Shown: positions 2,068-61,191 of the stretch, piece by piece
Position numbering within the stretch: the first letter of the stretch is position 1
Layout: the number at the start of each line of letters is the position of its first letter
NCBI GenBank assembly: GCA_015494465.1
Contig: WGBD01000006.1
Location: 10,431 to 74,430 of the forward strand
Reading direction: 5' to 3'
Length of the DNA stretch: 64,000 bases
Source of the DNA: Candidatus Omnitrophota bacterium
GTDB lineage: Bacteria > Omnitrophota > Gorgyraeia > S143-82
Program-made: the position numbers and the translations under genes
The notes under the pieces: generated by a model
Databases searched by the model: none
The model's input: only the letters and a program-made list of their open reading frames with translations
Told to the model about the DNA's origin: nothing

Positions 2068-5000
2068 TCATTCGTAGAAAACCACGCCACCTTTTACCGG
2101 CAGGCGGGTGCGCTTGCCCGGCTGTAATAGGCGATTTACCGGATAGAACCTCGTCCTCCACGATTCCACAACCGAAAACATCGCGGATCTTTCCTCCCCA
2201 GTGAACAGATACCGCAACTCCCAGAGGAAGTTCACCGCATAATCTACCTTCCTGACCAAGTTCCTACCTTTCCTCTTGAGGATCTGAGAGAGATATTCCT
2301 TGACGAACGGATACCTACTACCTATCCCCAACCTATCCCAGCGCTCAGGATTAAAGGAGAGGAGGTTGAACAAGACCTTAGATCCCAAGCCCGGTGCCCG
2401 ACTCACTTTCTCACTGAGGAGTTGATAACTTAGAGGGACACCGCTCCAGGCCGAAACGAACCCCAACACCCCTTCCCGCGCAAGTAGGTCCAGAACCTTG
2501 AACGGATCGTAATAGGTATCCTCTATCCGGGTATTGGCCAGATCGTAGAGAAAGCGGGGAGACAGTCTAGAGCTGAGACTCGAGAGGGCCTCCAACCTCA
2601 AGCATTCCCCATAGGGGCCCATGTGGGATATAATGTGGAGAACAAGGTTCTCTGCCTTCCTCTGCAGGGAATCGTTACTCCGGAGGATGCGGTATATCTG
2701 GGAGCGATATTTTGGATACAACTTAGAGACGGTACTGCCTATCTTGAACAGGATCCCCTCTCCATTCGAGGTCAATACTCGCCTGGGCCTCCGAGAAAGC
2801 CTCTTCCAGATATACCACCCTGTCAATCCAATTACTGCAGGGAAGAACAACGGCGTAATGGAAAAGAGACTCGCCTGCAATAAGCTGTACTTGATTCCGT
2901 TCAAGGTCAGGGGCAATAAGAATAAAGCAAAGGAATTTAACTTAGTTCCAGCGCCTTCTTCCAATCGCATCCGGATCAATCTGGTGTCCAGCGTCCTATA
3001 GAACTTGCTCAGATCCTCTGCAGCATTTTTGACCAACTCCCTCTCATCCGGACGCATGCCTTTACCGACGAATCTCTCCTCAAATTCCCACAAAAGCCTT
3101 GCGTCGTGCTCGAAGTCCTGCATATGATTCAAATAGTACTCAATCAAGACATCGTTCACTTTTTCGTCTCCAGTCAACATACTCAAAACGCACAGGGCCG
3201 TCCTCCAGCGCGCATAGTGAGCGAGGTTGTTAAACCTGTCTGGCTGGACTCCTGCCCTAATCATCCGAGAAAACACCCTAGGATTAATCACTATCACATC
3301 GCGCAAGAACTTCCTGTAAGCCAAAACCCTTGCCTCGTCTTCGAAGAATTCCGCGATCCCACTGTAATGAGGCAAAAGGGTAAAATTGTAGGAGGCTTTC
3401 CATCCTGGAATCATCTTCGCACGGAACAAGATTGGCCAGGACTCAACGGGAACCATACCGCTCCCAGTATAATATATCGAAAAGAACTTAAGGATACCTG
3501 AATAAAAGCCCTCAAGCTCCTGTTTAGTAAAGTCCCTCGCCTTTCTTAAGCGCTCCAGATACATTTGGGCCCACTCTTGGGACTTCTCGGGATCTCTAGG
3601 AGCCAACGGCAACAGACTGTACAACGATATCACGATTGCAGGAGGTCCGTGATGTTTAGGTCCAACTTTATAACTTGAAAGTTTGCGCAAGGGGTTATAG
3701 TTTTTAGGGGGAAGGTGCCATAAGAACGATATGCTCGTGTGCTTCCACTTCTTGACGATCCGGGCCACAGGCATCTCCAGATCGATGGCGGGAACGGCGA
3801 AAGTTATAATCCCGCCGTTAGGATAGAAAAACACGAAGGCACCCATATCAAAAACCCGGGCCAATTCTCCTCCCATGGATTCTTTGCTCTTCGAGGAAAC
3901 GGTTATATGTAATATTGATTGAGAACCTATGGACAATGAGCCTATGCCTCTTAGTCTATTACTGGGTTTTATGTGGTTCGCCCGTTCGATTATCTCTCTA
4001 CTAGAGGGTAAACCAACGAATACCGGAAATGCATCGTTGACGCGGGGGAATAGATCTTCTATTCGAATGTGGTACTGCTTCCTCTTCATCGAGAACTCGC
4101 AAATCTTATTCCCCTCGGAGTCAAAGACAACTCGTTTTCCAAGATCGGGGAAGGATTCCACTGTAACCTTTCCCAAGATCAGATTGAGCTTACCCTGTCT
4201 CTTAATCAGTTTTATCACCCTCTTATTCTCGGACTTTTTCTCCACTTTGAAGATCGCTTCTTTCTTTATCCACCAAGGCAGGACCCGACGCACATTGATT
4301 TCTACCCTAGCCATACTCACCTGATAATGCGTCTTACGCCACGAATCGTACTCGACGATCTTCACCTTATCCTTATCTTCGCCTTTAAACCACATAAAGG
4401 TAGATTCTCCCAGTTCCCTCCATTGGCCGGGAGTATAGATTATGTCCAGATTCGGGTGCTTGCTAAGCACCCTAAAACGATTCTTGGCTTTATCCACCAA
4501 GATCACAAACACCTCTTCCCAGTTTATCCAATTTTCTCTCTTTAAATAGAAGGTAAACTTAATGTCAGGGCCTGCATTCTCCTCCAATACACCTTTCATC
4601 GTGTAAGAGCCATTCTTCAGCAACTCGTAAAGTGGACTGCCTTCCCAATACACGGACTTAGCAAATCCGCACTTATAACCGCCGAAGTCCAAAGAAAATG
4701 CCGATTGGTGCCCCACGAATACAGGATGCCTGGTCTTTACGAACTTCCCACTCTGCACCGGTTTAACATAGTCCGGGAACAGCTTGGCGGGGGACAACAC
4801 GAGCTCCCGTTTCCCGGACTGTCCGAAGACAAACTTATTGACCTCCTCCCAGCCTAAGAAAGAAGAAATACTCATCCCGTCTTTATCTTTACGATACAAG
4901 CGGGCTCGCATCCCATTCTCCGAGAAGACGAAATCGAGAGAAAAAGCATAAGAGAGCCTCTGTTCGTCTCTTAAGAGATCCACTCCACGCTTCAGGATCA

Positions 5001-8000
5001 TGCTTCCCACGACCGGGGTTATCTGTTCGTAAAAATCTATTATGATCGTTTTTTCTTTTTCTAATTCTAAGACTCGGGAGACGACTATGTACTTATTAAT
5101 GTCTACCCTTTTAGGTTGAGCCCACAACCCGGATAGACTCGTCCACTTGGGCATGCGTAGCATTACCCACTCACAATCGATTGGATAATCCCTGAAGAAC
5201 TTCTCTACGAGAGAAGAAGCCAATAACATCTTTTTACCACCAGCCGCGTTCGCAAAAGATATCTTCTTTATCTCTCTCCACCAAGACCCATCGTAAGGAA
5301 TGGACTTTTCTATGTAGGAAAGCATATCTAGAAAGGTCATGTCTTCCTTACCGTTGGGTACCTTGCAAAGGCAAAAAGACTTGGAAAGACCTGCTAAGAC
5401 CAGATAATACCTGTAATCTCGCTTCTCGTCCTCTGGAAAGGCGATGCAATACATAGCCTTGCGCATGTAATCTAGCTCCCAGTTGCGGGTTATTTTAAAG
5501 ATAGGGTCGATAGAATCAACTATCGGTTTTCCCGAACCCCCTTTTAACCCAATCCAGCTCACCGTCTTTCGAACATGCAGGGCTTTACTCACCGGAACCG
5601 CAACCAACGAGACCTTTAAGACCTTATCAAGCAACTGCTTGGCTATACCAAATTCGTCGAAGATCTCCACTCTAGCACCGTATATCACCATCCTCGGTAC
5701 CCACTGCCCTCCTAACGGATGGGGCTCCAACCACACGATAACTGGCACATAACGACCGCCTATCTGGGCCCCTACTACCGCTATCTTGGTCTCATTCCCA
5801 AGCTCAAGACCCAGCTTTTTTAGTTTGTTCAAGAAGGGTTTCCGCTTCTCTATGCCCTCCCAGATCACCTTCTCGTGTCCCTTCAAAAGATCCGCCACCT
5901 TAAGAAGGGAGTCGGTCGCAACCACACTGCGATCTCCGTGGAGCTCTAGGTAGAGGCTGGTAAGGAGGGACCTGGTAGCTTTGAAGTTGTCAGGCAGGCG
6001 GTTCACCGGTTTAGAGAAGTGAAGTTCGAAGTGCTTTCCTCCCCTTTTATCGGGGGCCCTCTGCCTGGGCCTTCCTAGATACTTAGCAAGTATCGGCGGC
6101 AAAACCACCTCTGGAGGGGATTTCAAGTTAGGTCCCCACAGGGACAAGTACTGGTCCAGATTATTCAGAAAGTCCCTCAGCCAGCGCAGATCCATGGAGG
6201 CCTTAAGGGGCAAACCTTTTATCTGATGATACCTCAACTCTACCCTATCCACGATATTGCCCCTACCCCAGTCGACCTCGTAATGCCTAAACACCTCTAG
6301 AGGGAAGGTGTTTGGTATGTTCAGTTCTTTTATCAACTCTTTTCCCGAATAGAACCTCACCACTATGTAGGAACTCCCCAGCGGATTGGTCTTTCTCCAG
6401 GCCTCAAGCCAATCCTCTTTGAAGCTAGGCAGGTGTTTCACTGCCTTTGCCAGGTAAAGCTGTTGAAAGTCCTGAAAGATCTTCAGGTCAGGATCCATCG
6501 AGCCAGTGTATTCTGCCACCCTCTCTGCTATCTCGTTCAGGGCCTCGATCAAAGGCCCGTATGCTTCTCGGGCCTTTTCCTCCTCACCTTCTTTACTGGC
6601 GATGAGATCCTTCAGCTCCCCTGCCAAGGGGACTTCAGCGATATCGACCTTCTCTGCCTCCAATCTGGACCGGACCTCCTCCAATAAGGAGCTGACTAGT
6701 GATGCTTTCCCTCGGCTAAACTCTACCATCCGCTTCAGGCTATCCTCCAACCACTTAAGCTCCCCTTTCCTCTTCTTCCACTGCTTGGGCTTGGTGAAAG
6801 AGAAGGTCTTTGCGTACCTGACGAGGGACTCCACTAACCAACCCTTTACCTCTTTCGAATCGATTATTCCCCTGGATAGGACTTCGTCTGTCGGCTCCTC
6901 CAGGGCATCGATCGCAGTTAGACCAATGGCAGGGATCAGGTTCTCACCAAGGGACCTAGAGAGGACGGTTCTTAGTCCATCCCAGAACTCCTCTTTGTTG
7001 TTCACCGCAAGCTCGCCCACGACGAAGGAGAGATAGGAAAGCACCATCATCCTAGACCAAGCAGAACGGTCTTCGATTCCCTTCAAGATCGGGGCGAGTT
7101 CGCCCTTTACCACGAACCAAGGTAAATCTTCTTCTGGGAGATCCAAGGGGCCACTCAGATCGTAGGCCAGAGAATCCAGCCTCTCCTCCATATCCTCTGT
7201 CTCCTCCAGCCCACGGGAGGCCAAAACCGCAGAAGCGAAGGCCTTAAAGGCCCTACCGTAAAGGTGAAAGATCCTCAGATCGCTCGCTAAGAGATAGTCT
7301 GCGTACCTCCCCAAGGACTTGACCTCCTCATTTTTGTCCCAGCGATCAAATCGCTCCAGGGCCACGACCAACATAAGCGATGGTAGAACTCCACCAGAAA
7401 AGGCCTTTCGATCGAGAATCGCCGGCATCTTGCCCTTGAGGAGAGATCGGATCCCCTCCAAAGACTTCCTCGCGGATCTGGGGATCCCTTGGGCAGACTT
7501 CGAGCTCAAGGTCTTTTCGATCACTGCCTTCACATCCTCAGGCCTGTCTAGCCACCAAAGCAGTATCAACAAGGGTTCAACTACTCCGGGATAGGTGAAC
7601 GAGAAACCACCGGAAAGGCGTTTGAGGGAATCGACGATCTCACTCAAGCCTTTTGGTTCTGACGGACCTGACCGGTCGAGGCGATAGACCACTGCCTCAA
7701 GTAGATCTGCCAGGAAGACTTCCTCCTCAGGTGCAATTCCGTCTACGGACTCCAACCTATCCTTCAAGGCAGAGACCCAGTTCTCTCCCTGAAGCAGGAC
7801 CAAGGCACATGAGAAAAGCATGCGATACTTCCTATAGTCGGGATGGGAGAGCAACCGCTTGATCTGGCCGATCAACCAGTTGGTTTGATCAGGGGATAGA
7901 GAAGAAAGATCTCGATTCAACTCTGCAAACCTCCCTTCCCCCAACAAGCCAGCAAAACGAAGAGCGCACACGAAGGGATCGGTTTGCCAGTAAGGTTCGC

Positions 8001-10983
8001 TGAAGGAGCGGAGCACATCCACCCTCCCGATCTCTAGGAGGGTCGCACTCCAGGCCCGGACGATCAACTCCTTACTGCCCTCCAGTGCACCGATTTCGTC
8101 TTCCCCCGCTGACCCTAAGGCCTCTGCTATCACCTTCTCATTTATAGCCCGACTCTTGACAAGATAGACCAAAAACTGGATCAAAGACTCTATGCCCCCT
8201 TCCCGTGCCACCCCCAGAAACACCCGAGCCACCGCGCTGGAATCCTCTTTCAGACTGACGGTGAAGGTCTGAGCGACCCCGGGATTATTGGAACTTATCA
8301 GGGCCCGAGAAAGCTCAAAAGAAAATTCGTCTATCTTAGAAGGGCTTGCTTCTCCCCCTCTCTCCCTGGCTAGGTCCATCCAAAACTTCACTATCCCCGT
8401 CGATAACCTGATCAACCTCTGTTTAGAGGCCGACTTTTTCGCAAAGGCCTTCACCCATTCGTCGCGAACAGTCTCAGGGCGAGATGCGAACACCATCGTC
8501 AACCACTCAGTTGCAGTAGGGAGGTCCTCTTTGAGAAGTCCGGGAAAGTCCTTCACCCGGTCCAATATCTCTCCCGCTACCTCGCTCTTCAACAAATCGT
8601 CGACTCCGACAGCCTTTTCCATCCCAAAGAAAGCTTTCGCGATTTCCTGAAATACTCCTTCGTAGGTATTACTGTAACGGATCCTTTCGTCCAACAACAA
8701 ATCAATGGCGTTCGAGAAGGCACTTATCCGGTGCTTCCACTTATCCAGATCCTTTGCGGTGGCGTTATAGCTGACCAGGAACCTGGCCAGATTACTCACC
8801 AGCAGATCTAAGGTCTCCCCCTCCACTTGGGCCCCTAACAAGACCATCATCGCGCTGGCGAATCTAATCCCCTCGAGCTTCTTGTCATCCGATGTCATCT
8901 CCTCCAAGTTAAATCTCCCAAAAGACCTCACCAGCGCACTATACACTGGGACATAGGCAGGTTCCCAGATCACCTCTCCTCTGGGGAAGAAGGGTTGAGC
9001 AACCCTGGTAACCCACAAATAGAACAATTCCGCATCCTTGCAGTCAGATATTGGTGCGGAATCGATCCAATCGGCCAATTTTTCAGGAGAAAGTCTGTCA
9101 ATCGTCTTCTGCCAACGGGGCGTATCCGCCAACAGCTCCTTCAACTCTTCAGCCGACTTCGGGGCTGCCAACTCGACCGTTTTTCCTTTGGACCCAGGGC
9201 GTTTGCCTTTCTTTTTCTTAACCGACAGCCCTAAAAGTGGTAAGAATCCAAGGGAGGGGAACAAGGCAGATCCCAAAACCGCGACCAAAAACAAGACCAC
9301 CCCGTCGCGGTTATCCTTTAGTAATCGAACTGCCCTGAGGAGCACCGTTCGGAGCCTATCGCTCCACTTCCCCGTAACTGGGCCCGCCTTCAGAGGGGTC
9401 TTCCAGGTGATAATCGTGCCCGTCCTCCTTGCCACCTCTCTCAACAACGGCCGAAGCGAGGGCTCTTGCTTCCAGGCCTCAAAAAAGGCATTTACCACCG
9501 AATAGGAGTGCTTCCCTCCCTCTAGACCCAACAGGTCTCTCAACTCTCTCAAGGTCGAGACGAACAGATCTACGGTCTGGTCTTCAGATAAGTAAAGACC
9601 GTCCCCAACTTGGGGGGTGGCGACCATCTCCAGCTCCGCGGTAGGAGCGGTTGGATCGATCTTCCTGACCACTATCAAGGATAACGGCAGGCACCCCGCC
9701 TTGACGGGGAGATTGGCACCGTTCTCAATCCAGGCCCGGGTAAAGATCTCCCCCACCTGTCCGCATAGGCCAATGCGATATTTCTCGTCGAACTCGCTAG
9801 CAATGGCCCCTTTAAAGAGGGGCAAGGGCAGACCTGTCTTCTCCTCGACGGACGAGACCCGCCCTTTGCTTCCGTAGGCTATAACCGTCTTGTCTGCGAG
9901 GTAGTCGTAGAGAATCGCGAGCCATTGGCCTCTTCCAAGCCCGATCACATCCACCAGCTCTAACCTGACATCCTCGGGATACCTCATCCCCAGTTCCCTC
10001 TCCAAGGCCTCTAATACCTCTTTTGAGACCTCCTCTTTGGCAAAACGGATGTCCTGATACCCTACCGGAACGGGAGCCAAACGCAAAAACCCTTGATCGT
10101 CTACCTCCTTGCGCCTCAACCAGGAAAATACCGACTTCATCTTTATCCCACCCAGGGCCCTGACCAACTTCTTCCCCCGAAAGGAGAAGGAGACGGGAGA
10201 GAAGAATCTGTCCAGATAGGCGCGTTTCCACTCGTAAGGGTCGTCGCTAGGATCGTCGTCGTACAACCAGCTACCCAGCACCTCTACACCCCGCAAGGGA
10301 GCCCTCTTGGAGTCCAAAGTCTTCTTCCCCCTCCGAGAGAGCCTCCGCTTGAGGTGATTTGCCAACAGGTACACCGCAAAGGCCTCCCTCAACCTCCTGT
10401 AGGCGGGATCGCTGGATATCTTCTCCTCCAGATCCCTGGCAACCTGAGAGTAGAGGTCTGCGCACTCCCGGGAACCGCCCTTGAACTTGACCTTCAGCTT
10501 CACCTGGGAGACGAAGAACCTGTCTTCCTTTCCCTCCAGATAACCACGAGCCGGCTCCACCCAAAAGAAGGGGAAGTCAACCAATCCCTCCACATCTCCC
10601 GCAACCAGTCTGCGCAGGAGGATCGTCTCGAGGTCCTCCTTAAACTGGTAATCCATCGCCAAGAGCAGCCTCCCCACAGGGTTGTGCAGGAGTTCAGGGG
10701 GAAGCGGAGGATAGCCCGGAGACAGGTTCACCCACAGGATCTCCGGTGGTATCCTGAGGAAGGTCTCAAACAACCTCTCCACCTCTGATCTGGATAGAGA
10801 TAACCCCTCCTTGGGATACAGGATCCGATAGGTCCCCTTTCCTACCTCCAGCCCCAAGGGCACGGAGAAGGAAGGGCTACCCCCCCAACCTGCCCAGGCG
10901 TAGCCCGGGAATAGGGTGGTCGTCCCAAATATAAAGGCCAGGAGGCAAGCCTTTACTCTCGTCCAAAAAGGATCAGACATCAT
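2068..10983 (-). CDS. giant (2971 aa) uncharacterised secreted / membrane-anchored protein; no recognisable catalytic family
   Basis: Uninterrupted 8.9 kb ORF. N-terminal hydrophobic signal/anchor (MMSDPFWTRVKACLLAFIFGTTTLFPGYAWAGW). Internal TM helix near aa 535-560 (VVLFLVAVLGSALFPSLGFLPLLGLSV) followed by the polybasic patch KKKKGKRPGSKGK. Long Leu/Glu/Ala/Arg-rich, probably helical-repeat, region. Two hydrophobic segments near aa 2680-2720 (FALFLLPLTL..., ITPLFFPAVIGLTGWYIW followed by KRLSRRPRR). SD-like GGAGGG about 9 nt upstream of the ATG. Confidence 0.8.
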   Translation of the reverse strand: MMSDPFWTRVKACLLAFIFGTTTLFPGYAWAGWGGSPSFSVPLGLEVGKGTYRILYPKEGLSLSRSEVERLFETFLRIPPEILWVNLSPGYPPLPPELLHNPVGRLLLAMDYQFKEDLETILLRRLVAGDVEGLVDFPFFWVEPARGYLEGKEDRFFVSQVKLKVKFKGGSRECADLYSQVARDLEEKISSDPAYRRLREAFAVYLLANHLKRRLSRRGKKTLDSKRAPLRGVEVLGSWLYDDDPSDDPYEWKRAYLDRFFSPVSFSFRGKKLVRALGGIKMKSVFSWLRRKEVDDQGFLRLAPVPVGYQDIRFAKEEVSKEVLEALERELGMRYPEDVRLELVDVIGLGRGQWLAILYDYLADKTVIAYGSKGRVSSVEEKTGLPLPLFKGAIASEFDEKYRIGLCGQVGEIFTRAWIENGANLPVKAGCLPLSLIVVRKIDPTAPTAELEMVATPQVGDGLYLSEDQTVDLFVSTLRELRDLLGLEGGKHSYSVVNAFFEAWKQEPSLRPLLREVARRTGTIITWKTPLKAGPVTGKWSDRLRTVLLRAVRLLKDNRDGVVLFLVAVLGSALFPSLGFLPLLGLSVKKKKGKRPGSKGKTVELAAPKSAEELKELLADTPRWQKTIDRLSPEKLADWIDSAPISDCKDAELFYLWVTRVAQPFFPRGEVIWEPAYVPVYSALVRSFGRFNLEEMTSDDKKLEGIRFASAMMVLLGAQVEGETLDLLVSNLARFLVSYNATAKDLDKWKHRISAFSNAIDLLLDERIRYSNTYEGVFQEIAKAFFGMEKAVGVDDLLKSEVAGEILDRVKDFPGLLKEDLPTATEWLTMVFASRPETVRDEWVKAFAKKSASKQRLIRLSTGIVKFWMDLARERGGEASPSKIDEFSFELSRALISSNNPGVAQTFTVSLKEDSSAVARVFLGVAREGGIESLIQFLVYLVKSRAINEKVIAEALGSAGEDEIGALEGSKELIVRAWSATLLEIGRVDVLRSFSEPYWQTDPFVCALRFAGLLGEGRFAELNRDLSSLSPDQTNWLIGQIKRLLSHPDYRKYRMLFSCALVLLQGENWVSALKDRLESVDGIAPEEEVFLADLLEAVVYRLDRSGPSEPKGLSEIVDSLKRLSGGFSFTYPGVVEPLLILLWWLDRPEDVKAVIEKTLSSKSAQGIPRSARKSLEGIRSLLKGKMPAILDRKAFSGGVLPSLMLVVALERFDRWDKNEEVKSLGRYADYLLASDLRIFHLYGRAFKAFASAVLASRGLEETEDMEERLDSLAYDLSGPLDLPEEDLPWFVVKGELAPILKGIEDRSAWSRMMVLSYLSFVVGELAVNNKEEFWDGLRTVLSRSLGENLIPAIGLTAIDALEEPTDEVLSRGIIDSKEVKGWLVESLVRYAKTFSFTKPKQWKKRKGELKWLEDSLKRMVEFSRGKASLVSSLLEEVRSRLEAEKVDIAEVPLAGELKDLIASKEGEEEKAREAYGPLIEALNEIAERVAEYTGSMDPDLKIFQDFQQLYLAKAVKHLPSFKEDWLEAWRKTNPLGSSYIVVRFYSGKELIKELNIPNTFPLEVFRHYEVDWGRGNIVDRVELRYHQIKGLPLKASMDLRWLRDFLNNLDQYLSLWGPNLKSPPEVVLPPILAKYLGRPRQRAPDKRGGKHFELHFSKPVNRLPDNFKATRSLLTSLYLELHGDRSVVATDSLLKVADLLKGHEKVIWEGIEKRKPFLNKLKKLGLELGNETKIAVVGAQIGGRYVPVIVWLEPHPLGGQWVPRMVIYGARVEIFDEFGIAKQLLDKVLKVSLVAVPVSKALHVRKTVSWIGLKGGSGKPIVDSIDPIFKITRNWELDYMRKAMYCIAFPEDEKRDYRYYLVLAGLSKSFCLCKVPNGKEDMTFLDMLSYIEKSIPYDGSWWREIKKISFANAAGGKKMLLASSLVEKFFRDYPIDCEWVMLRMPKWTSLSGLWAQPKRVDINKYIVVSRVLELEKEKTIIIDFYEQITPVVGSMILKRGVDLLRDEQRLSYAFSLDFVFSENGMRARLYRKDKDGMSISSFLGWEEVNKFVFGQSGKRELVLSPAKLFPDYVKPVQSGKFVKTRHPVFVGHQSAFSLDFGGYKCGFAKSVYWEGSPLYELLKNGSYTMKGVLEENAGPDIKFTFYLKRENWINWEEVFVILVDKAKNRFRVLSKHPNLDIIYTPGQWRELGESTFMWFKGEDKDKVKIVEYDSWRKTHYQVSMARVEINVRRVLPWWIKKEAIFKVEKKSENKRVIKLIKRQGKLNLILGKVTVESFPDLGKRVVFDSEGNKICEFSMKRKQYHIRIEDLFPRVNDAFPVFVGLPSSREIIERANHIKPSNRLRGIGSLSIGSQSILHITVSSKSKESMGGELARVFDMGAFVFFYPNGGIITFAVPAIDLEMPVARIVKKWKHTSISFLWHLPPKNYNPLRKLSSYKVGPKHHGPPAIVISLYSLLPLAPRDPEKSQEWAQMYLERLRKARDFTKQELEGFYSGILKFFSIYYTGSGMVPVESWPILFRAKMIPGWKASYNFTLLPHYSGIAEFFEDEARVLAYRKFLRDVIVINPRVFSRMIRAGVQPDRFNNLAHYARWRTALCVLSMLTGDEKVNDVLIEYYLNHMQDFEHDARLLWEFEERFVGKGMRPDERELVKNAAEDLSKFYRTLDTRLIRMRLEEGAGTKLNSFALFLLPLTLNGIKYSLLQASLFSITPLFFPAVIGLTGWYIWKRLSRRPRRVLTSNGEGILFKIGSTVSKLYPKYRSQIYRILRSNDSLQRKAENLVLHIISHMGPYGECLRLEALSSLSSRLSPRFLYDLANTRIEDTYYDPFKVLDLLAREGVLGFVSAWSGVPLSYQLLSEKVSRAPGLGSKVLFNLLSFNPERWDRLGIGSRYPFVKEYLSQILKRKGRNLVRKVDYAVNFLWELRYLFTGEERSAMFSVVESWRTRFYPVNRLLQPGKRTRLPVKGGVVFYE

Positions 10984-11042
10984 CTAACCGTAGCCCTCCT
11001 ACCTATACTAAACATTTTAATAATCCCTTAAAAAGTATTATA
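10984..11042 (-). promoter_or_regulatory. AT-rich intergenic island upstream of the giant ORF: putative promoter plus ribosome binding site
   Basis: A 59-bp stretch of markedly lower GC than its surroundings. On the minus strand it reads GGCCTCGTAATATAATACTTTTTAAGGGATTATTAAAATGTTTAGTATAGGTAGGAGGGCTACGGTTAGATG. It contains TATAAT-like hexamers and a GGAGGG Shine-Dalgarno about 9 nt before the start codon. Confidence 0.35.
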
Positions 11043-11636
11043 TTACGAGGCCTTTCGTATGCCAACCTCAAACTCGCTCACGCAGGTATCCCCGTACTCT
11101 CGCCTCCTAACAAGCCTAAGGCAATAGGTCTCGTTCAGGCGCATACGGCAATAGTGTTCCAGAAATACCCGCGCCTCGGGCTTGAGTATACCGTATTCAC
11201 AGATGGCCTTTAGGGTGCTCCGTTCCCACCTGCCGTGGTAGGGGGGGTCTATGTAAACCACATCCACCTCTATCTCCTTGGAGGCCAAGAACTTAATAGA
11301 CCTCTTAATCCCCCAAGGCAGGATTATACAGCCCTTCTCCGGAAGGACTGAAGGGGCCACCACATAGGGTTGCCCCACCAACGAGAGATTTTTCTCTATG
11401 AGTTTGACGACCTCCGGATCCTTCTCGACGAATATCACCCGATCCATCCCCCGGGAGAGGGCCTCTATTCCCACCGCCCCGGATCCGGCAAAGAGGTCAA
11501 GGAAGGTTCCGCCTGAGAAAAACTCCCCCAATACGGTGAACAAGGCCTTACGGACCTTGGTACTGGTAGGGCGTATCTTGGCTATAAATCTGAGCTTTTT
11601 CCCCCGGTACCTGCCACCTACAAGGGTAAGGTGCAT
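11043..11636 (-). CDS. rsmD: 16S rRNA (guanine966-N2)-methyltransferase RsmD
   Basis: 197 aa. SAM-MTase motifs LDLFAGSGAVGIEALSRG and the N6/N2-MTase signature DPPY (VVYIDPPY). Confidence 0.85.
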   Translation of the reverse strand: MHLTLVGGRYRGKKLRFIAKIRPTSTKVRKALFTVLGEFFSGGTFLDLFAGSGAVGIEALSRGMDRVIFVEKDPEVVKLIEKNLSLVGQPYVVAPSVLPEKGCIILPWGIKRSIKFLASKEIEVDVVYIDPPYHGRWERSTLKAICEYGILKPEARVFLEHYCRMRLNETYCLRLVRRREYGDTCVSEFEVGIRKAS

Positions 11637-11642
11637 CTTGTA

Positions 11643-12044
11643 TTAAAACAGCCTCTTTGCCCTGCCGTTGAGTTCACTCTGACGGGCGGACTCGCACTTC
11701 ACGCAAAGGGTAGCGGAGGGCATTATCTTGAGCCTGCCCTTTGGGATGGGCTCCCCACAGCCCTCGCACAGGCCGTAGACACCGCGCTCTATCTTTTCCA
11801 AGGCGTACCTCAAGGCGGACAACTGCTCGTACTCCTTGGAAAGGATACCGGCGGAGAATTCCTTGTCGTATATCTCTCCGGACACATCAGCCATGTGCAT
11901 GCTGTAAACGGATGTCCTTTCCCCTCCTAAGGTCTCCCCGGAGATGCGCTTTATCTCTTCTTCCAGGCGCTCTATCTCCTTCAGAATTATCGGCTTAAAT
12001 ATCTTCTTCATCTCCGTCTTGGTAAGAGGCTTAGCCTTAGCCAT
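11643..12044 (-). CDS. DksA/TraR-family C4 zinc-finger transcription factor
   Basis: 133 aa with a C-terminal CEGC-x17-CVKC, the exact CxxC-x17-CxxC spacing of DksA/TraR zinc fingers. N-terminal region is coiled-coil-like. Overlaps the ileS 3' end by 8 nt. Confidence 0.7.
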   Translation of the reverse strand: MAKAKPLTKTEMKKIFKPIILKEIERLEEEIKRISGETLGGERTSVYSMHMADVSGEIYDKEFSAGILSKEYEQLSALRYALEKIERGVYGLCEGCGEPIPKGRLKIMPSATLCVKCESARQSELNGRAKRLF

Positions 12045-14778
12045 CTGCCCGTACCTCCCTATTTTCCAACTGCCTGACCACCTCCGTACAGCGAGGACAT
12101 AACTCCGGCCATTGCTTATCCATTCCCACCTCGGTTGACCAGTTCCAACAGCGCAGGCACTTCTTACCGCTGGCCCTCTCCACCCTGACCATCCGCTCCT
12201 GTCCCTTCTCCAGTTCCACTCCGGACACTATAAAGACATACTTCAGGAAATCTGCGTGCCTCTGTATCAGCCTGTAATCCTCATCTGGCAAGTATAATAC
12301 AATACTGGCCTCAAGTGAACTGCCGATCAAATCTTTTTCCCGGGCCTCCTCCAAGGCCTTAAGGACCATGTCGCGAATCTCCATTATCAGATCCCACTCC
12401 CGGCGCTCCTCAGGGGACATCTGAGGAAGAGACTCTGGCCAATACTCCAGGTGCACCGATTCCCCTCCCACCAGATGCTCCCAAACCTCGTCCGCGGTGA
12501 ACACCAATACCGGCGAGACTATCTTGGCAAGGGCAACCCCTATCTCGTACAGACTGCTCTGGGCGGACCGGCGCTCCAAGGAGTCGGGTGCGCTAACATA
12601 CAACCTGTCTTTGAGGACATCCAGATAAAACGAACTCATGTCTATGTTGCAGAAGTGGTATATCTGCTGAAACACCTTGGGGAAGTCGTAACTGCCGTAG
12701 GCCCGGTCCACTAACTCCACCAAAGTAGCGAGACGATCCACTGCCCACCGGTCAATGGAAAGGCGAGAAGAGAACGGGATCGCGTTTTCCTGGGGATTGA
12801 AGTCGTAAAGATTGGCAAGGATGTAGCGAAATGTATTCCTGATCTTGCGATAGGCATCTGCCATCTGCTTGAGTATGTCTTCAGAGAGCCTTACATCTGC
12901 CTGATAATCCGAGGACAGGACCCACAACCTCAGGATGTCCGCACCGTAATTCTTCAGGACATCCTGGGGGGATATCACATTGCCCAGGGACTTGGACATC
13001 TTCCTCCCCTGTCCGTCCACGACGAAGCCGTGGGTAAGGACCGCCTTGTAAGGAGCAATACCCCGAACCGCAGTGGAAGGTATGAGGGAGGATTGGAACC
13101 AACCACGGTGCTGATCGCTCCCTTCCAGATACAGATCCGCGGGGAAACTCAACTCGTTGTCCGCCTCCAGGACCGCAGAGAAACTACCCCCTGACTCAAA
13201 CCACACATCGATGATGTCCTCCCCTGGGGAGAAGTCATTGACCCCGCACTTTGCACACTCCTTACCTTCCACCAATCCACCGACTTCCTCGCTGAACCAG
13301 ACATCCGAGCCCTTCTCCGCTACCAGTCTGGCAAGGTTCAGTATCACATCCACATCCAACAACGGCTCACCGCAGGCCCTGCAGTAGAATACCGGGATGG
13401 GCAGGCCCCAATAGCGCTGGCGGGACAGACACCAATCAGGACGGTCTTTTACCATCGCCTTTATCCTCTCCCGACCTGAGGCAGGTATCCACTTCACCGA
13501 ATCTATGGTCCGCAGGAGTTCTTCCCGCAGGCCCTTGTGGTCCACCGACAGGAACCACTGATAGGTTGCCCGGAAGATTATCGGCTTCTTACACCGCCAG
13601 CAATGAGGATAGGAGTGGATTAATTTGGAAGAGTAAAGGAGTCGACCCAACTCCGACAGCCTCTGCAATATCAACTCGTTGGCCTGCTGTATGTCCTTGC
13701 CTTCCAGTTCCGGAAAATCAGGGGTATTGAAGAACCTACCTTTCTCGTCCACCTGCATTATCAGGTCCAGACCGCACCTCACCCCCAGTTGGAAGTCCTC
13801 GTGCCCGTGCCCCGGGGCTATGTGCACGAATCCGCTTCCCTCCTCAGCGGAAACGAAGTCCGCCAAGACCACCTTGGATACGCGCGAGAGAAACGGATGC
13901 CTGTACTTCTTACCTTCCAGATCCCTACCCCGCCTGCGACTTTTGACCTTCAGATCCCGCCCCAACAACTCCTTCACAGCAGGCAGACGGCTCTCAGCGA
14001 GGTAAAGTGCCTTATCCCCGTCCTCTACCAGGATGTAATCCAGATCCGGATGGACTGCAACTGCGGTATTTGCGTAAAGCGTCCAAGGGGTGGTCGTCCA
14101 TATCAGGAGGTAAACACCCTCCTGACCCTCCAGAGGGAACAGGACATAGATGGAGGGTGATTCCTTATCGTAGTATTCAACCTCCGCCTCCGCCAAGGCG
14201 GTCTCGCAACTCGCACACCAGTGCACCGGCTTGCGCCCACGATAGATGTAGCCCTCCTTGACCAGCATAGCGAACAATTCGTACAACCGGGACTCGTACT
14301 TAGGAGATAATGTCAGGTACGGCCTCTCCCACCTGCCCAACACCCCCAAGCGCTTGAACTCTGCCCTCTGGATGTCCACGAATTTAAGGGCGTACTCGTG
14401 GGCCATCCTGCGAAACTCCAGTTTGTCCACCTCGTGCTTGGTCTTGCCCAACTCCTTGAACAGCTGGTGCTCCACGGGAAGCCCGTGACAGTCCCAACCC
14501 GGCACATAGGGACAGTCAAAGCCCTTCAGAGTGTGGTATCTGATAACTATGTCCTTCAGTATCTTGTTCAGGGCGTGGCCCATGTGGATGTGTCCGTTGG
14601 CATAAGGCGGACCGTCGTGGAGGACGAACTTCTCTGCCCCACTGCGGGCCTCTCTTATCCTCCCGTAAAGGCCCATATCCTCCCACTTTCTGAGGCGTTC
14701 GGGTTCCCTCTTGGGCAGGTTCGCCCGCATAGGGAAGTCCGTCCGGGGGAGATTTAGGGTGTCCCTGTAATCGCCCAT
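12037..14778 (-). CDS. ileS: isoleucyl-tRNA synthetase
   Basis: 913 aa. HMGH (HIGH-class) motif PYANGHIHMGHALNK, KMSKS motif ([10 protein letters not shown]), C-terminal Cys cluster CLRCWNW...CPRC. Confidence 0.92.
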   Translation of the reverse strand: MGDYRDTLNLPRTDFPMRANLPKREPERLRKWEDMGLYGRIREARSGAEKFVLHDGPPYANGHIHMGHALNKILKDIVIRYHTLKGFDCPYVPGWDCHGLPVEHQLFKELGKTKHEVDKLEFRRMAHEYALKFVDIQRAEFKRLGVLGRWERPYLTLSPKYESRLYELFAMLVKEGYIYRGRKPVHWCASCETALAEAEVEYYDKESPSIYVLFPLEGQEGVYLLIWTTTPWTLYANTAVAVHPDLDYILVEDGDKALYLAESRLPAVKELLGRDLKVKSRRRGRDLEGKKYRHPFLSRVSKVVLADFVSAEEGSGFVHIAPGHGHEDFQLGVRCGLDLIMQVDEKGRFFNTPDFPELEGKDIQQANELILQRLSELGRLLYSSKLIHSYPHCWRCKKPIIFRATYQWFLSVDHKGLREELLRTIDSVKWIPASGRERIKAMVKDRPDWCLSRQRYWGLPIPVFYCRACGEPLLDVDVILNLARLVAEKGSDVWFSEEVGGLVEGKECAKCGVNDFSPGEDIIDVWFESGGSFSAVLEADNELSFPADLYLEGSDQHRGWFQSSLIPSTAVRGIAPYKAVLTHGFVVDGQGRKMSKSLGNVISPQDVLKNYGADILRLWVLSSDYQADVRLSEDILKQMADAYRKIRNTFRYILANLYDFNPQENAIPFSSRLSIDRWAVDRLATLVELVDRAYGSYDFPKVFQQIYHFCNIDMSSFYLDVLKDRLYVSAPDSLERRSAQSSLYEIGVALAKIVSPVLVFTADEVWEHLVGGESVHLEYWPESLPQMSPEERREWDLIMEIRDMVLKALEEAREKDLIGSSLEASIVLYLPDEDYRLIQRHADFLKYVFIVSGVELEKGQERMVRVERASGKKCLRCWNWSTEVGMDKQWPELCPRCTEVVRQLENREVRADG

Positions 14779-16940
14779 CAGGTCCGCACCTTCCTACCAA
14801 CGAGCACCAAGGGAGACGCTATGAATATGGTAGAATAGGTCCCGGAGATCACTCCAACCAGCAACGCGAAGGCAAAGTCGTTAAGAACCTCACCGCCAAA
14901 CAGGTATATGGACAGGACCACCAAGAGCGTGGTGAAGGAAGTAATGATGGTCCTGCTCAGCGTCTCGCTTATCGCGGTATTTATGATCTCGTAGAGCCCT
15001 GCCCGGCGCATCACCCTGCGCTTTTCCCTAACCCGGTCGTAGATCACGATCGTATCGTTCACCGAATAACCTGCAATGGTCAGCAGGGCGGTTATGATGA
15101 GCAGGTCCAACTGCCTGCCGGTGAAGGCGAGGAAACTCAAGGTCACCAAGACATCGTGCAACAGGGCAACTACCGCTGCCACCGCGAAGTTCCAGTGGTG
15201 AAAGCGGAAGGCCACATACACGAGTATCCCTATCAAAGACCACACCACCGCAAGGGTTGCCTTCTTCTTGAGGAGTTTTCCAATGGACGGACCTACCCTC
15301 TCAACGCGCAACAACTTGGCCCCCAGTTTTTCCCCAAAGGCCTTGTCCACCTTATCCACCACATCGTCCTTGGTCCGGATTATCACCGAACTCTTATCGT
15401 CCCTGAAGCGCTGTATCAGGGCATTCTCTACACCCAATTCCTTGAGGGTCTGCCTTATCTTGGCGGTATCCACTGGATGGTCAAACCTGTACTCCTGGAG
15501 ATATCCGCCCGCGAAGTCTATTCCAAACATGCTCTGGCCCCGGTAGAGAAAGACGCCTGCTCCACCTACGATTACCGCCAGAGAAAGCAGATAGGCCCAC
15601 CTGCGCCAAGCGAGGAAGTCGATCTTCACTCCCTCAAACACACTGGACATCGGCAACCTGCTCAGTCCGGTGTACTCCAAGAGGAGTTCAAAGACCAGTC
15701 GGGTAAAGACTATCGCGGTGAACATACTGGCCAGGATTCCTATGGACAGCGTTACCGCAAATCCCTTTATCGGGCCAGTCCCGAACTGGAAAAGCATCAC
15801 CGCAGCTATCAAGGTGGTGAGATTGGAATCCACTATGGTCAGAAAGGCCTTCTCGTACCCTGCCCTTATCGCGCTCCTCAAGGGTGAACCCGCACGCAAC
15901 TCCTCCTTGATGCGCTCGTTTATCAGGACATTCGCATCCACTGCCATACCCAAGGTGAGGATGATACCTGCAATGCCCGGCAGGGTTAGGGTCGCCTTGA
16001 ACAGCCCCAATCCCCCCAATATGATGAGGACATTGAACAAAAGGGCGACATCCGCGATAAGCCCTGCCAGACGATAATACAACAGCATAAACAAGAAGAC
16101 CAAAACAGCACCTATAAGGGCAGACTTTATCCCCTGGCGGATAGAATCCTGTCCCAACAACGGGCCAACGGTCCTCTCTTCCACCACCTTCATAGGGGCA
16201 GGCAGGGCACCCACCCGCAAGACCAGTGCCAGGTCCTGGGCTTCTGGCACGGTGAAGTGGCCGGTTATGGAGGCCCTACCCCCGGTAATCGGCTCCCTTA
16301 TCTGGGGGGCGGACTGGACCTTACCGTCGAGGACTATCGCCAGATTACGACCTACATTCTTCCGGGTAATCTCTGCGAAGACCTTGCTACCCTCGGGGGT
16401 GAATTCCAAGGAGACCGAGGGTTGATTGTACTGGTCAAAACTCATGTACGCCTTCTTAATGGCATCCCCGGTGAGCAGAGGCTTCTTCTCCACCAGATAG
16501 GGCCGACCTTCCTCGTCGTACAGGACCTCGTAATCCTCAGGTATGGGTTCACCTTTCAAGGCCTTGGCCAGCAACTGGGGATCCTCCACCACCAACTTGA
16601 ACTCTAACTGGGCGGTCTTGCCCACGATGTCCAAGGCCCGCCTCCTGTCGGTCACTCCCGGCAACTGCAGGACTATCTCGTCCATCCCCTGGCGGGTGAT
16701 GGAGGGTTCCTTCACCCCGAACTCGTCAATACGATTGCGAATCACCTCAAGGGCCCTCTCTATCGCATCTTCCTTATCCTTGGGAGGGATCTGGCTGGTA
16801 TCCACCTTCAAGACGAGGTGCATACCCCCCTTGAGGTCCAATCCGAGGTTGATCTTCTTATCCAACGGGAGGGCCGACCAGAGGGAGAAAACTAATACCG
16901 CCAGTACGACCGCCAATCGCCACTTGACCCGCCTGTCCAT
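14778..16940 (-). CDS. secDF: protein translocase subunit SecDF (fused SecD-SecF)
   Basis: 720 aa single ORF. SecD N-terminus KINLGLDLKGGMHLVLKV and periplasmic domain, then a second 6-TM SecF-like half (FRFHHWNFAVAAVVALLHDVLVTL). Confidence 0.88.
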   Translation of the reverse strand: MDRRVKWRLAVVLAVLVFSLWSALPLDKKINLGLDLKGGMHLVLKVDTSQIPPKDKEDAIERALEVIRNRIDEFGVKEPSITRQGMDEIVLQLPGVTDRRRALDIVGKTAQLEFKLVVEDPQLLAKALKGEPIPEDYEVLYDEEGRPYLVEKKPLLTGDAIKKAYMSFDQYNQPSVSLEFTPEGSKVFAEITRKNVGRNLAIVLDGKVQSAPQIREPITGGRASITGHFTVPEAQDLALVLRVGALPAPMKVVEERTVGPLLGQDSIRQGIKSALIGAVLVFLFMLLYYRLAGLIADVALLFNVLIILGGLGLFKATLTLPGIAGIILTLGMAVDANVLINERIKEELRAGSPLRSAIRAGYEKAFLTIVDSNLTTLIAAVMLFQFGTGPIKGFAVTLSIGILASMFTAIVFTRLVFELLLEYTGLSRLPMSSVFEGVKIDFLAWRRWAYLLSLAVIVGGAGVFLYRGQSMFGIDFAGGYLQEYRFDHPVDTAKIRQTLKELGVENALIQRFRDDKSSVIIRTKDDVVDKVDKAFGEKLGAKLLRVERVGPSIGKLLKKKATLAVVWSLIGILVYVAFRFHHWNFAVAAVVALLHDVLVTLSFLAFTGRQLDLLIITALLTIAGYSVNDTIVIYDRVREKRRVMRRAGLYEIINTAISETLSRTIITSFTTLLVVLSIYLFGGEVLNDFAFALLVGVISGTYSTIFIASPLVLVGRKVRT

Positions 16941-16957
16941 ACAGGAACTCCTTTAGA

Positions 16958-17218
16958 TTACAGTTTTCTGGCTATCGCGGACCTGTCTACGTCTATCTTG
17001 GCATCCCCGCCTATTCTCAGGGTAATCACATCGTCCCGCACCGAAGCCACCATCCCGTGTATCCCCCCGATGGTGACCACCTTATCTCCGGGGCGCAGAG
17101 ACGCTATCATCCTCTTCCGCTCCTCCTGCTCCTTTTTTGCGGGTAATATTACAAGAAAGTAAAATACCCCCAATACGATCAGAAAGGGGACCAACTGGAG
17201 GATTAGGTTACTGTTCAT
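16958..17218 (-). CDS. yajC: preprotein translocase subunit YajC
   Basis: 86 aa. Single N-terminal TM helix followed by the conserved PGDKVVTIGGIHGMV region typical of YajC. Confidence 0.85.
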   Translation of the reverse strand: MNSNLILQLVPFLIVLGVFYFLVILPAKKEQEERKRMIASLRPGDKVVTIGGIHGMVASVRDDVITLRIGGDAKIDVDRSAIARKL

Positions 17219-18779
17219 TATCGCTCTCCTCCTGGGAATCGCCCGAAGACAGATCTTTCATGCTCAGCCCTATCTTCGTCTGCTCGGGATCTACCTTGAC
17301 TACCCTTACCTTTACCTTATCGTGGGGCTTGAGCTGGTCCAGGAGGGACTTGTCCATCTCGGACATGTATACCAGACCTTCCAGTTCGTCTTCAAGCTTT
17401 ACGAATACCCCAAAGTTCGTTATCTTGACGACCTCGCCTTCAACCTCCGTACCAACTTTATACCTTTCCACTATCTCCGGCCAAGGATTGGGACGCAACT
17501 GCTTTATCCCCAATGCGATCTTCTGGGCGTCCTTGTCCACCGCCAGGACCTTTACCTCTATTTCCTCACCCTTCTTGAGCACTTCCTGAGGGTGGGTTAT
17601 CCGTCTGGTCCAGGACATATCCGAGACGTGCACCATCCCCTCTATCCCGTCCAAGACCTCGACGAATGCCCCATAATCGGTGAAACCACGGACTATTCCC
17701 TTGACTACCGAGCCAACCGGAAGCTTGTCTTCGACGTCGTCCCAGGGATTCGGCTGTAACTGTTTCGTGCCCAAAGAGATCTTCCTGCGGTCCTTGTCCA
17801 CATTCAAGACTACCGCGGAGACCCTATCGCCTACCTTGTACAGGTCCGAAGGATTGATGCTTCTCCTGACCCAGGACATCTCAGAGACATGGACCAACCC
17901 TTCCACTCCAGGTTCTAATTCCACGAAGATACCGTACGGCATGATGTTCACGACCTCGCCTTCCACCTTGGAACCGACGGGATACTTCTCCTCTACCCTC
18001 TCCCACGGATCCTCGGTCAACTGCTTAAGGCCCAAGGCCACCTTCCCCGCCTCTTTGTCCACGGAGAGGACCTTGACCTTTACCTTATCGCCTACCTTCA
18101 ATATGTCGGAAGGGTGTCCAACCTTGCCCCAACTCATGTCAGTCACATGAAGCAGACCGTCCACCCCACCCAGGTCTATAAATGCACCAAAATCGGTGAT
18201 GTTCTTAACGATGCCCTCCCTTATGTCCCCCTCTTTCAGCTCCTGCCAGAGCCTCCTCTGGGCCTCTTCTTTCTCCTTCTGCAGGGCATCCCTTCTAGAG
18301 ACGACTATGTTCTTGCGGAGACGATTTATCTTGATGATCATGAAGTTGAAGTTCTGGCCTAACACCTGTCTCTCTTTGCCCCGGAAGGTAGAAAGGGAAT
18401 TGGGGAGGAAACAATCCATACCACATATGTCCACTATGAAGCCACCCTTCACGATGCGGGCAACCTTCCCCTCGACGATACTGCCTTCCTTATATTCTGC
18501 GATTATCTTCTCCCAGCCAAGGAGCCTATCCGCCTTGCGCTTAGAGATCACCAGAAAACCGTCCTCGTCTTCGGTGTTCTCTATGTAAACATTTATTTCT
18601 TTCCCTATGTCTATGTCCTCCCAAAGGAACTCGTCCTTGGGGATAAAGCCCTCAGACTTGTACCCTATATCCACCACTACCTCGTTGCCGGAGATCCTGA
18701 CGACCTTACCCTTGACTATCTGTCCGTCCTTGATCTCCTTGATGTGCTGGGCATACAGTTCCATCAACTCACTACTCAT
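17208..18779 (-). CDS. rpsA: 30S ribosomal protein S1
   Basis: 523 aa with six tandem S1/OB repeats (recurring G.V.G.V..I..FGAFV....G.EGL.H.S..SW motifs). Confidence 0.92.
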   Translation of the reverse strand: MSSELMELYAQHIKEIKDGQIVKGKVVRISGNEVVVDIGYKSEGFIPKDEFLWEDIDIGKEINVYIENTEDEDGFLVISKRKADRLLGWEKIIAEYKEGSIVEGKVARIVKGGFIVDICGMDCFLPNSLSTFRGKERQVLGQNFNFMIIKINRLRKNIVVSRRDALQKEKEEAQRRLWQELKEGDIREGIVKNITDFGAFIDLGGVDGLLHVTDMSWGKVGHPSDILKVGDKVKVKVLSVDKEAGKVALGLKQLTEDPWERVEEKYPVGSKVEGEVVNIMPYGIFVELEPGVEGLVHVSEMSWVRRSINPSDLYKVGDRVSAVVLNVDKDRRKISLGTKQLQPNPWDDVEDKLPVGSVVKGIVRGFTDYGAFVEVLDGIEGMVHVSDMSWTRRITHPQEVLKKGEEIEVKVLAVDKDAQKIALGIKQLRPNPWPEIVERYKVGTEVEGEVVKITNFGVFVKLEDELEGLVYMSEMDKSLLDQLKPHDKVKVRVVKVDPEQTKIGLSMKDLSSGDSQEESDNEQ

Positions 18780-43231: not shown

Positions 43232-43287
43232 AAGCTGCCTCCTTATTTAAATCTTGATTTTACCACAAGGCCCCTCGTTTTCCCAGC

Positions 43288-60839: not shown

Positions 60840-61191
60840 CCCTTATTATTATCGGCTCGGGCAGTTTGCCCCCGGAGATCTCCTCTTCACTGGCCCACCA
60901 ATAGGACAAAACGATTATCTCGTCCCCCACCTGTGCGGTGCGGGCAGCCGGGCCGTTCAGACAGACCACGCCCGAGCCCCTCTTACCGGGTATGGCGTAG
61001 GTCTCTATACGGGAGCCGGTGCTGAGGTTGAGGACCTCCACCTTCTCGTAGGGCAGGATGTTCGCCCTCTCCAGCAGGTCCTCGTCGAGCGTAATACTGC
61101 CCTCGTAATAGAGTTCCGTTTCGGTTACCCTTATCCTGTGTATCTTTGACTTCAACACGCATCGATTCATAATCACACCCCAACCGCTCAT
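60823..61191 (-). CDS. panD: aspartate 1-decarboxylase
   Basis: Probable start MNRCVLKSKIHRIRVTE (internal Met at about 61170). Self-processing site YEGSITLD and the CLNGPAAR region. Confidence 0.88.
   Translation of the reverse strand: MSGWGVIMNRCVLKSKIHRIRVTETELYYEGSITLDEDLLERANILPYEKVEVLNLSTGSRIETYAIPGKRGSGVVCLNGPAARTAQVGDEIIVLSYWWASEEEISGGKLPEPIIIRGESDA

Follow-up and report, generated by a model that had tools for sequence, protein, structure and literature searches.

In flagellin genes and other mosaic surface-protein genes, conserved ends enclose a hypervariable centre that diverges beyond recognition even among fairly close genomes and has an atypical composition. In Rhs proteins, the C-terminal domain is demarcated by the motif PxxxxDPxGL and differs from the protein shell in guanine-plus-cytosine (GC) content and codon bias (PMC8636562). 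Across bacteria, genes with evidence of recombination are GC-richer and genes without such evidence GC-poorer (Lassalle et al. 2015, PMC4450053), the pattern linked to GC-biased gene conversion (gBGC). Giant, largely unannotatable proteins have been described from Omnitrophota (West-Roberts et al., 10.1101/2023.11.21.568195). Here we describe a compositional step inside one giant gene of a Candidatus Omnitrophota bacterium, located in a 64,000-nucleotide (nt) stretch of contig WGBD01000006.1 (forward-strand positions 10,431 to 74,430), which we call the window and whose coordinates are used throughout.

The GC step in this gene is real and statistically solid. It sets off an internal block of the encoded protein, and our leading explanation, held with evenly balanced confidence, is that the block is a native, ancestral and extremely divergent module that did not take part in the rise in GC of a lineage now at 54%. 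The gene and its protein are laid out as follows.

2068..10983, minus strand: giant open reading frame (ORF), 8916 nt, 2971 amino acids (aa), orphan family
10891..10983, minus strand: signal-peptide-like N-terminus, aa 1-31, ending ...GYAWA|G, from reading the sequence
9301..10890, minus strand: putative exported N-terminal domain, aa 32-561, from alignments and hydropathy-based architecture
9232..9300, minus strand: transmembrane (TM) segment, aa 562-584 (hydropathy 2.31), followed by the Lys-rich stretch KKKKGKRPGSKGK
5689..9231, minus strand: middle region, aa 585-1765, L/A/E-rich, of normal GC content (0.49-0.56)
8284..8733, minus strand: a further, small stretch with atypical codon use, aa 751-900 (GC 0.49; codon-fit score, defined below, -0.067)
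5689..5733, minus strand: motif WLEPHPLGGQWVPRM, aa 1751-1765, conserved across the family as PHPxGGxx[YW]VP, from the alignment
2794..5688, minus strand: AT-shifted block, aa 1766-2730, delimited by change-point analysis, rich in F, Y, M, I, N and K (FYMINK), and the most diverged part of the protein by divergence tests
2809..2934, minus strand: hydrophobic stretch forming a hairpin or a long TM segment, aa 2684-2725 (Kyte-Doolittle peak 2701-2719), followed by WKRLSRRPRR
2071..2793, minus strand: C-terminal tail, conserved, aa 2731-2971, at GC 0.526 and with codon use like that of the host

The nearest analogue of the giant gene is the Rhs/CdiA pattern, yet every testable defining feature of that pattern fails here. 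The likeness consists of the large size of the protein and of a step in GC content and codon use within its gene, placed right after a short conserved motif and at the most variable part. However, the block of the giant protein is internal and followed by a conserved 240-aa tail, whereas the variable part of Rhs proteins forms the extreme C-terminus. The motif is PHPxGGxx[YW]VP rather than PxxxxDPxGL or VENN, and searches with Pfam, NCBIfam and PADLOC found neither YD/RHS repeats nor a known toxin domain. The gene downstream is smc (rpsO at the homologous locus L002) and not an immunity gene, and the block is predicted to be cytoplasmic, with no exchangeable variants known. Flagellin-type genes offer a second likeness, in that the conserved N- and C-terminal parts of the giant protein flank a divergent, compositionally atypical stretch. 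The variable regions of those proteins lie at the cell surface, where they face pressure from immune systems or phages, unlike the presumably cytoplasmic block described here.

Two further comparisons concern composition and protein size. The block shares with the gBGC pattern a regional deficit of GC at third codon positions (GC3) that is independent of amino-acid content; that work compares genes (PMC4450053), whereas the step described here lies within a single gene. By analogy, the gBGC hypothesis might offer a mechanism for a non-recombining hypervariable segment. With the giant proteins of Omnitrophota (10.1101/2023.11.21.568195), the protein probably shares the phylum, and it shares great length, a largely unannotatable sequence, membrane association and a genome in which almost every gene lies on the same strand. 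It differs from them in length (2971 aa compared to a threshold of >10,000-30,000 aa), in having two to four hydrophobic segments rather than dozens, and in its lack of SecA-DEAD, dockerin or peptidase domains. The Omnitrophota giant-protein literature that we examined makes no mention of intragenic composition steps.

Results

Size and boundaries of the GC step

In 400-nt windows, the GC content of the giant gene was 0.43-0.49 at ~2800-5700 and 0.51-0.58 in the remaining gene. Maximum-likelihood segmentation with two change points placed the low-GC block at aa 1766-2730 (2794-5688), with a GC content of 0.461 compared to 0.538 in the 5' part and 0.526 in the 3' tail. The log-likelihood ratio of the change points was 21.7-22.3, against a mean of 5.2 and a maximum of 13.6 in 200 codon shuffles. 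GC3 was 0.564 in the block and 0.657 outside (Fisher p = 1.2e-6), and GC at the first and second codon positions (GC12) was 0.410 in the block and 0.477 outside. For comparison, the 36 native reference genes of the window had a GC content of 0.547 ± 0.022 and a GC3 of 0.69 ± 0.04, and the 64-kb window as a whole had a GC content of 0.535 (400-nt windows, 0.535 ± 0.040). The 3' boundary of the block was gradual, with GC content back to at least 0.52 from aa 2730.

A sequence-only reading of this DNA had proposed a strongly AT-shifted part of the gene, and the sliding windows, the segmentation and the codon shuffles all bear the step out. Profiles of GC, GC3 and codon usage compared with the flanking genes likewise contain the step and place the block off host codon use. 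The spot values of that reading were also reproduced, with 80-nt windows reaching 0.35 near 4500 and 0.29 near 5050 and averaging 0.57 near 8050 and 10500, and the Lys-rich peptide that it had quoted was located at aa 2142-2170 (4474-4560). The shift is smaller than the eye counts had suggested, with a mean of ~7.5 GC points. The position given there, the 3' half of the gene encoding the C-terminal part, was mistaken: the block makes up ~32% of the gene and is internal, the last ~240 codons (2071-2793) having a GC content of 0.52-0.54. Few and short samples could by themselves have given the impression of a step, as the eye counts covered few stretches of 60-100 nt and 80-nt windows scatter with a standard deviation of ~0.05. 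The comparison of the change-point likelihood with the shuffles, all 200 of which it exceeded, and the Fisher test on GC3 rule sampling noise out, and we give that explanation practically no chance.

Amino-acid and synonymous shares of the shift

Compared with the rest of the protein, the block is enriched in I (1.65-fold), N (1.5-fold), F (1.36-fold), Y (1.32-fold), K (1.29-fold), M (2.2-fold) and H (2.1-fold), and depleted in L (0.71-fold), A (0.73-fold) and E. These residue ratios agree with the K/N/F/Y/I-rich composition noticed earlier. Calculated using the window's own codon table, the GC content expected from the amino-acid sequence was 0.514 in the block, compared to 0.558 in the N-terminal part. 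Amino-acid composition thus explains ~0.044 of the 0.072 GC difference (~60%), the remaining ~0.028 (~40%) being synonymous. Observed GC3 was below the amino-acid expectation by 0.13 in the block and by 0.05 in the rest of the gene, and the deficit in the block was present in nearly every amino-acid family. The host's unusual preferences for ATA-Ile, AGG-Arg and TTG-Leu persist in the block; as they are common to the relatives, they do not discriminate between hypotheses. The FYMINK fraction was 0.318 in the block and 0.220 in the rest of the protein, compared to 0.364 vs 0.344 and 0.272 vs 0.262 in the two full-length relatives, whose genomes are at 36% and 47% GC and whose giant-gene GC profiles are flat. 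The contrast between block and rest is absent from both relatives and therefore does not represent a family-wide constraint.

A protein constraint acting as the sole cause would require a beta-rich domain that needs I, F, Y, N and K, residues with AT-rich codons. The larger part of the GC difference is indeed predicted from composition, and an AlphaFold2 (AF2) model of the block contains strands at aa ~1845-2395. This model, built from a three-sequence alignment, has a predicted local distance difference test (pLDDT) score of 30, too low for a fold search, and its strand-rich (aa ~1845-2395) and helix-rich (aa ~2465-2730) parts are to be read as a hint only. The native beta-barrel gene bamA is also lowered, at GC 0.50 and GC3 0.63, and shows the extent to which amino-acid composition alone lowers GC in the host genome. 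Its GC3 residual from the amino-acid expectation is -0.044, however, and the corresponding deficits of 0.05 in the rest of the giant gene and 0.13 in the block separate the block from both. Moreover, both homologs lack the contrast between block and rest, so the fold does not demand it, and the AT shift extends into the final ~265 residues of the block, which look helical. Given the synonymous deficit, protein constraint as the sole cause is largely refuted, and we regard it as improbable. bamA is a native beta-rich gene, and together with ompH it forms a mild low-GC patch (42722-45621, ~0.48-0.50).

The earlier suggestion that very different amino-acid constraints could underlie the shift holds in part, for the ~60% of the drop that composition accounts for, and fails for the synonymous ~40% and for the missing contrast in the relatives. 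Its example of an extracellular beta-rich domain has a hint in its favour in the low-confidence strands at aa ~1845-2395. As to location, hydropathy together with the Lys-rich stretch after the TM segment at aa 562-584 points to the cytoplasm and not to the outside of the cell.

Homologs of the giant protein and of the block

Only two full-length homologs, P0002 (3057 aa) and P0003 (3034 aa), were found among 5.8 billion protein clusters. A profile built from the three full-length proteins recovered only those three, and two metagenome scans for further family members found nothing. A genome scan yielded two N-terminal fragments in Candidatus Omnitrophota metagenome-assembled genomes, both truncated by contig ends; the assignment of the family to this phylum rests on them. 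These fragments (L004 5821-9150 and L005 9962-12212, on contigs of GC ~0.45) are 36-37% identical over aa 18-384, and upstream of both lie ORFs of 742-745 aa in a context unlike ileS-dksA-rsmD. Three full-length proteins and two fragments make this an extremely rare family. Searches of Pfam, NCBIfam, PADLOC, PHROGs and PDB sequences matched no part of the giant protein. The AF2 model of the N-terminal domain was marginal (mean pLDDT 51) and gave no Foldseek match in PDB at E ≤ 0.001 (best 0.17).

By hydropathy, all three proteins have a common architecture of a signal-like N-terminus, a ~530-aa domain, a TM segment, ~2100 aa, a hairpin and a tail. Both homologs likewise have hydrophobic N-termini, and the position of the TM segment at aa 562-584 is kept in both. 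The best conserved part of the family is the first ~300 aa (33-47% identity). The middle region contains a conserved island (aa ~1314-1765) and poorly conserved stretches, in one of which the atypical patch at aa 751-900 falls. The PHPxGG motif, with the invariant columns L1752, P1754, H1755, P1756, G1758, G1759, V1762 and P1763, lies directly upstream of the 5' composition step of the block. The hairpin at aa 2684-2725, which has counterparts in both homologs, coincides with the 3' end of the block, and the C-terminal tail is 35% identical to P0003 across aa 2747-2968. The positive-inside rule and the Lys-rich stretch after the TM segment suggest a cytoplasmic location for the long middle part and for the low-GC block within it.

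An equivalent block was present in both relatives, extending from the PHPxGG motif to the hairpin over 1015 and 1013 aa (965 aa here) and followed by the same conserved C-terminal tail. Homology of the block cores was assessed by global alignment with penalised ends against a shuffle null. The cores of P0002 and P0003 were homologous to each other (z = 5.9), and that of the present protein showed weak collinearity with each of them (z = 2.7 and 2.8). Regions that do not correspond gave z = -0.9 and 0.8, and a positive control gave z = 14. Similarity among the three taxa, the only ones compared, was thus discordant, a pattern that with three taxa either acceleration or replacement would give. 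In the block the relatives were mutually closest, and outside it the present protein was at least as close to each relative as the relatives were to each other. Among these three proteins, the block is extra-diverged in this lineage only.

The sequence-only reading had also raised the possibility that the module was acquired separately, by domain accretion or horizontal gene transfer (HGT), in which case homologs might occur as separate proteins. HMMER searches of 1.84 billion representative proteins with aa 1791-2740 returned only the protein itself, and the block query had no match in viral, phage and plasmid collections. Domain accretion or fusion in this lineage is not supported, as no stand-alone homolog or homolog in another architecture was found in these collections and the module is present in both relatives, in the same place and at similar length. 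Within the block we found no internal protein repeats. DNA repeats were limited to short two-copy matches (16-30 nt, 73-94% identity), no pair of which brackets the block, and no mobility genes flank it, the neighbours of the giant gene being housekeeping genes.

Codon use of the block relative to the host

We scored synonymous choices by a per-codon measure (codon-fit) that compares the host codon table with a table like that of L002, the locus of the 47% GC relative, negative values favouring the latter. All 36 reference genes favoured the host (+0.125 ± 0.036, minimum +0.038). Within the giant gene the score was +0.095 in the tail, +0.053 in the rest of the gene and -0.055 in the block. The host-likeness of codon use is a gradient along the gene and not a split between native and foreign. 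Codon-fit correlated with conservation even outside the block (100-150-aa windows; rho 0.49-0.63, p ~0.02-0.03), and no correlation was seen between conservation and GC3 residual in 75-aa windows (rho 0.20, p = 0.23).

When the fit was conditioned on GC3, a low-power test, it was 0.000 in the block, -0.004 in the tail and 0.016 in the rest of the gene, with reference windows at 0.039 ± 0.016. With the GC class of the third base fixed in this way, the block deviates no further than the GC-normal tail or the rest of the gene. Third-position skews, worked out by hand from base fractions, were nearly the same in the block and in host genes (GC3 skew, 0.144 vs 0.140; AT3 skew, -0.130 vs -0.143). 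The GC3 of the block lies between that of the 47% GC relative (0.48) and that of the host (0.66-0.69). The pooled intergenic GC content of 0.512 was not used as a neutral proxy, as the longer gaps probably hold small genes.

Genomic context

The neighbourhood of the giant gene and another region of atypical codon use elsewhere in the window comprise the following.

11043..19717, minus strand: upstream housekeeping block rsmD-dksA-ileS-secDF-yajC-rpsA-ispH, identified by Pfam and synteny and used as native reference
61312-62673: AAA_14/DUF4143 ATPase, accessory island
62736-63020: ParE toxin, accessory island
63021-63296: RHH antitoxin, accessory island
63544-63933: zeta-toxin fragment, accessory island

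At L002, where P0003 is encoded (giant gene at L002 10001-19105, compared with 2068-10983 in the window), the upstream order ispH-rpsA-yajC-secDF-ileS-dksA-rsmD-giant gene is identical. The products of rsmD, dksA, ileS, secDF, rpsA and ispH are 62-82% identical to their L002 orthologs, compared to 33-47% at most for the giant proteins in their best islands (aa 1-300, ~1314-1930 and 2747-2968) and undetectable similarity elsewhere. This shared synteny and low giant-protein identity indicate vertical inheritance of the giant gene at this locus and a very high rate of evolution. The downstream gene differs, being smc here (an SMC-type ATPase of at least 1072 aa) and rpsO-pnp in L002. The locus of the third homolog (L001) adjoins chemotaxis genes.

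No native gene has a lower GC3 residual than ispH (18776-19717; -0.109), and among the syntenic flank genes it shows the weakest conservation, at 62% identity to L002 compared to 70-82% for the others. The spacers flanking the giant gene are very AT-rich (10984-11042 at GC 0.31 and 1966-2067 at GC 0.42), which is compatible with the gene having its own promoter and terminator. The accessory island is part of a low-GC region (61100-64000, GC 0.38-0.47). Nearly all genes of the 64-kb window are on the minus strand, and cumulative GC skew drops monotonically across the 16 kb profiled; one-strand gene orientation per replichore is known for complete Omnitrophota genomes (10.1101/2023.11.21.568195). 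A scan of the 64-kb window found no tRNA and no Rfam family.

As the source is a metagenome assembly, the block could in principle be an assembly chimera, in which the assembler joined the gene copy of a related, lower-GC population across it. The conserved flanking motifs could seed such a mis-join, and the block resembles the lower-GC relative's sequence in codon use. However, the reading frame is intact across 8.9 kb, and architecture and length match the relatives. A 76-kb ENA scaffold matches without a difference over 13,983 nt, both boundaries included; it is a record separate from the 782-kb NCBI contig, though perhaps built from the same reads. At 20-45% protein identity the DNA would be too dissimilar to mis-assemble unless the second population were close, and a close second population would make the block detectably similar to known relatives, which it is not. 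A chimera is unlikely, and we give it very little credence.

Discussion

The composition of the block can be accounted for by evolution in place or by replacement of the segment; we rank the first ahead of the second, judging in-place evolution an even call and replacement a distinctly weaker candidate. In the scheme that we favour, the host genome would have become GC-rich (54%) relative to its relatives (36-47%). This rise would have been tracked by the housekeeping genes and by the larger part of the giant gene, and the block would have lagged, retaining AT-rich codons at all three positions together with a FYMINK-rich make-up poor in G, A, R and P. We infer both in which direction GC content moved along the lineage and what made the block lag. 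The block may be under weak or diversifying constraint at the protein level and weak codon selection, and it may be too divergent for recombination with other strains. AT-biased mutation in the block would then not be offset by the force that holds the genome at 54% GC, for which selection on G- or C-ending codons and gBGC are candidates.

We favour a native origin in the first place because the shift is even across the three codon positions and across almost every amino-acid family, with the host's preferences kept, and because in the low-power GC3-conditioned test the block resembles the GC-normal tail, with skews equal to those of the host. The gradient of codon-fit along the gene, and its relation to conservation outside the block, point the same way, as does the GC3 residual of native ispH, which approaches the -0.13 of the block. 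A native origin is further supported by the maintained place and similar length of the block in both relatives, with weak collinearity, by the conserved synteny with L002, by the very fast evolution of the whole protein compared with the flanking orthologs, and by the higher GC content of recombining genes across bacteria (PMC4450053). The flat profiles of the relatives would be expected if a weakly constrained region stands out only where genomic GC is far above the mutational equilibrium.

Several observations weigh against evolution in place. The 5' boundary is sharp: GC content is 0.57 over aa 1726-1765 and drops to 0.47 over aa 1766-1805. The synonymous choices of the block are closer to those of the 47% GC relative than to those of the host, and they are as atypical as those of the accessory-island genes (61-64 kb; codon-fit -0.04 to -0.11). 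GC12 in the block is at or below the 0.422 of the 47% GC relative. Windows elsewhere in the gene that are just as diverged lack the shift, with a GC3 residual of -0.059 compared to -0.125 in the block (p = 0.002) and a GC12 of 0.483 compared to 0.412 (p = 6e-5), which shows that relaxed constraint alone is insufficient. Inside the block, sites identical to the homologs have a GC3 as low as the others (0.505-0.562), and the effect is thus regional and not the result of selection at individual sites. Finally, a fast-evolving region should follow a genome-wide rise in GC sooner, not later.

Several of these points also speak for segment replacement. In this alternative, the block was swapped in frame for its equivalent from the homologous giant gene of a rather distant Omnitrophota relative of lower GC content (~42-47%). 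The crossovers would lie in or near the PHPxGG motif and in the C-terminal hairpin or tail, and the block would later have drifted in part towards host composition, GC3 first and GC1 and GC2 lagging. This fits the shift at all codon positions, with a GC12 matching that of the 47% GC relative and an intermediate GC3. It also fits a codon use that sets the block apart from all 36 reference genes and aligns it with the accessory island, the sharp boundary directly after an invariant motif, and the absence of an AT shift from equally diverged windows elsewhere in the gene. The discordant divergence, by which the relatives are closer to each other in the block than either is to the present protein, is likewise accommodated. 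Rhs C-terminal domains provide a precedent, their GC content and codon bias differing from the shell through recombination (PMC8636562).

Replacement meets difficulties of its own. No donor-like sequence was found in the protein, viral, phage or plasmid collections searched, and the family is extremely rare. The flanks of a donor at least 8 GC points off would not match closely enough at the DNA level for homologous recombination; two in-frame illegitimate joins would then be required. The block is flanked by neither repeats nor mobility genes. Its 3' boundary is gradual. In the low-power conditioned test, no GC-independent codon dialect separated the block from the GC-normal tail, the third-position skews are host-like, and the codon-fit gradient together with ispH shows that native sequence can come near the value of the block. 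We therefore consider replacement possible but rather unlikely, behind evolution of the module in place.

Intragenic composition steps are routinely taken as signs of gene transfer or domain fusion. Here the step sits in an ancestral, collinear module without outside homologs, which cautions against calling HGT from GC content alone. Whether it arose by in-place drift, to which we lean at about even confidence, or by cassette replacement, which we hold to be the less probable cause, the step is a further instance of a known pattern, a hypervariable segment with atypical composition. A more far-reaching and rather doubtful reading is that this is a polymorphic giant membrane protein, the first in Omnitrophota, in which a ~2.9-kb cassette from the PHPxGG motif to the hairpin is swapped in frame between distant lineages. 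The exchange would resemble that of Rhs/CdiA tips, except that it would be internal and cytoplasmic, with a recent donor of lower GC content. If true, cassette exchange would be a new modular architecture in an uncultured and possibly predatory phylum. We believe that the protein family is more intriguing than the step itself. Its members have ~3000 aa and no recognisable domain, and the protein lies in conserved synteny beside secDF, ileS, dksA and rsmD, yet evolves far faster than these neighbours; structural work on the family may be deserved.

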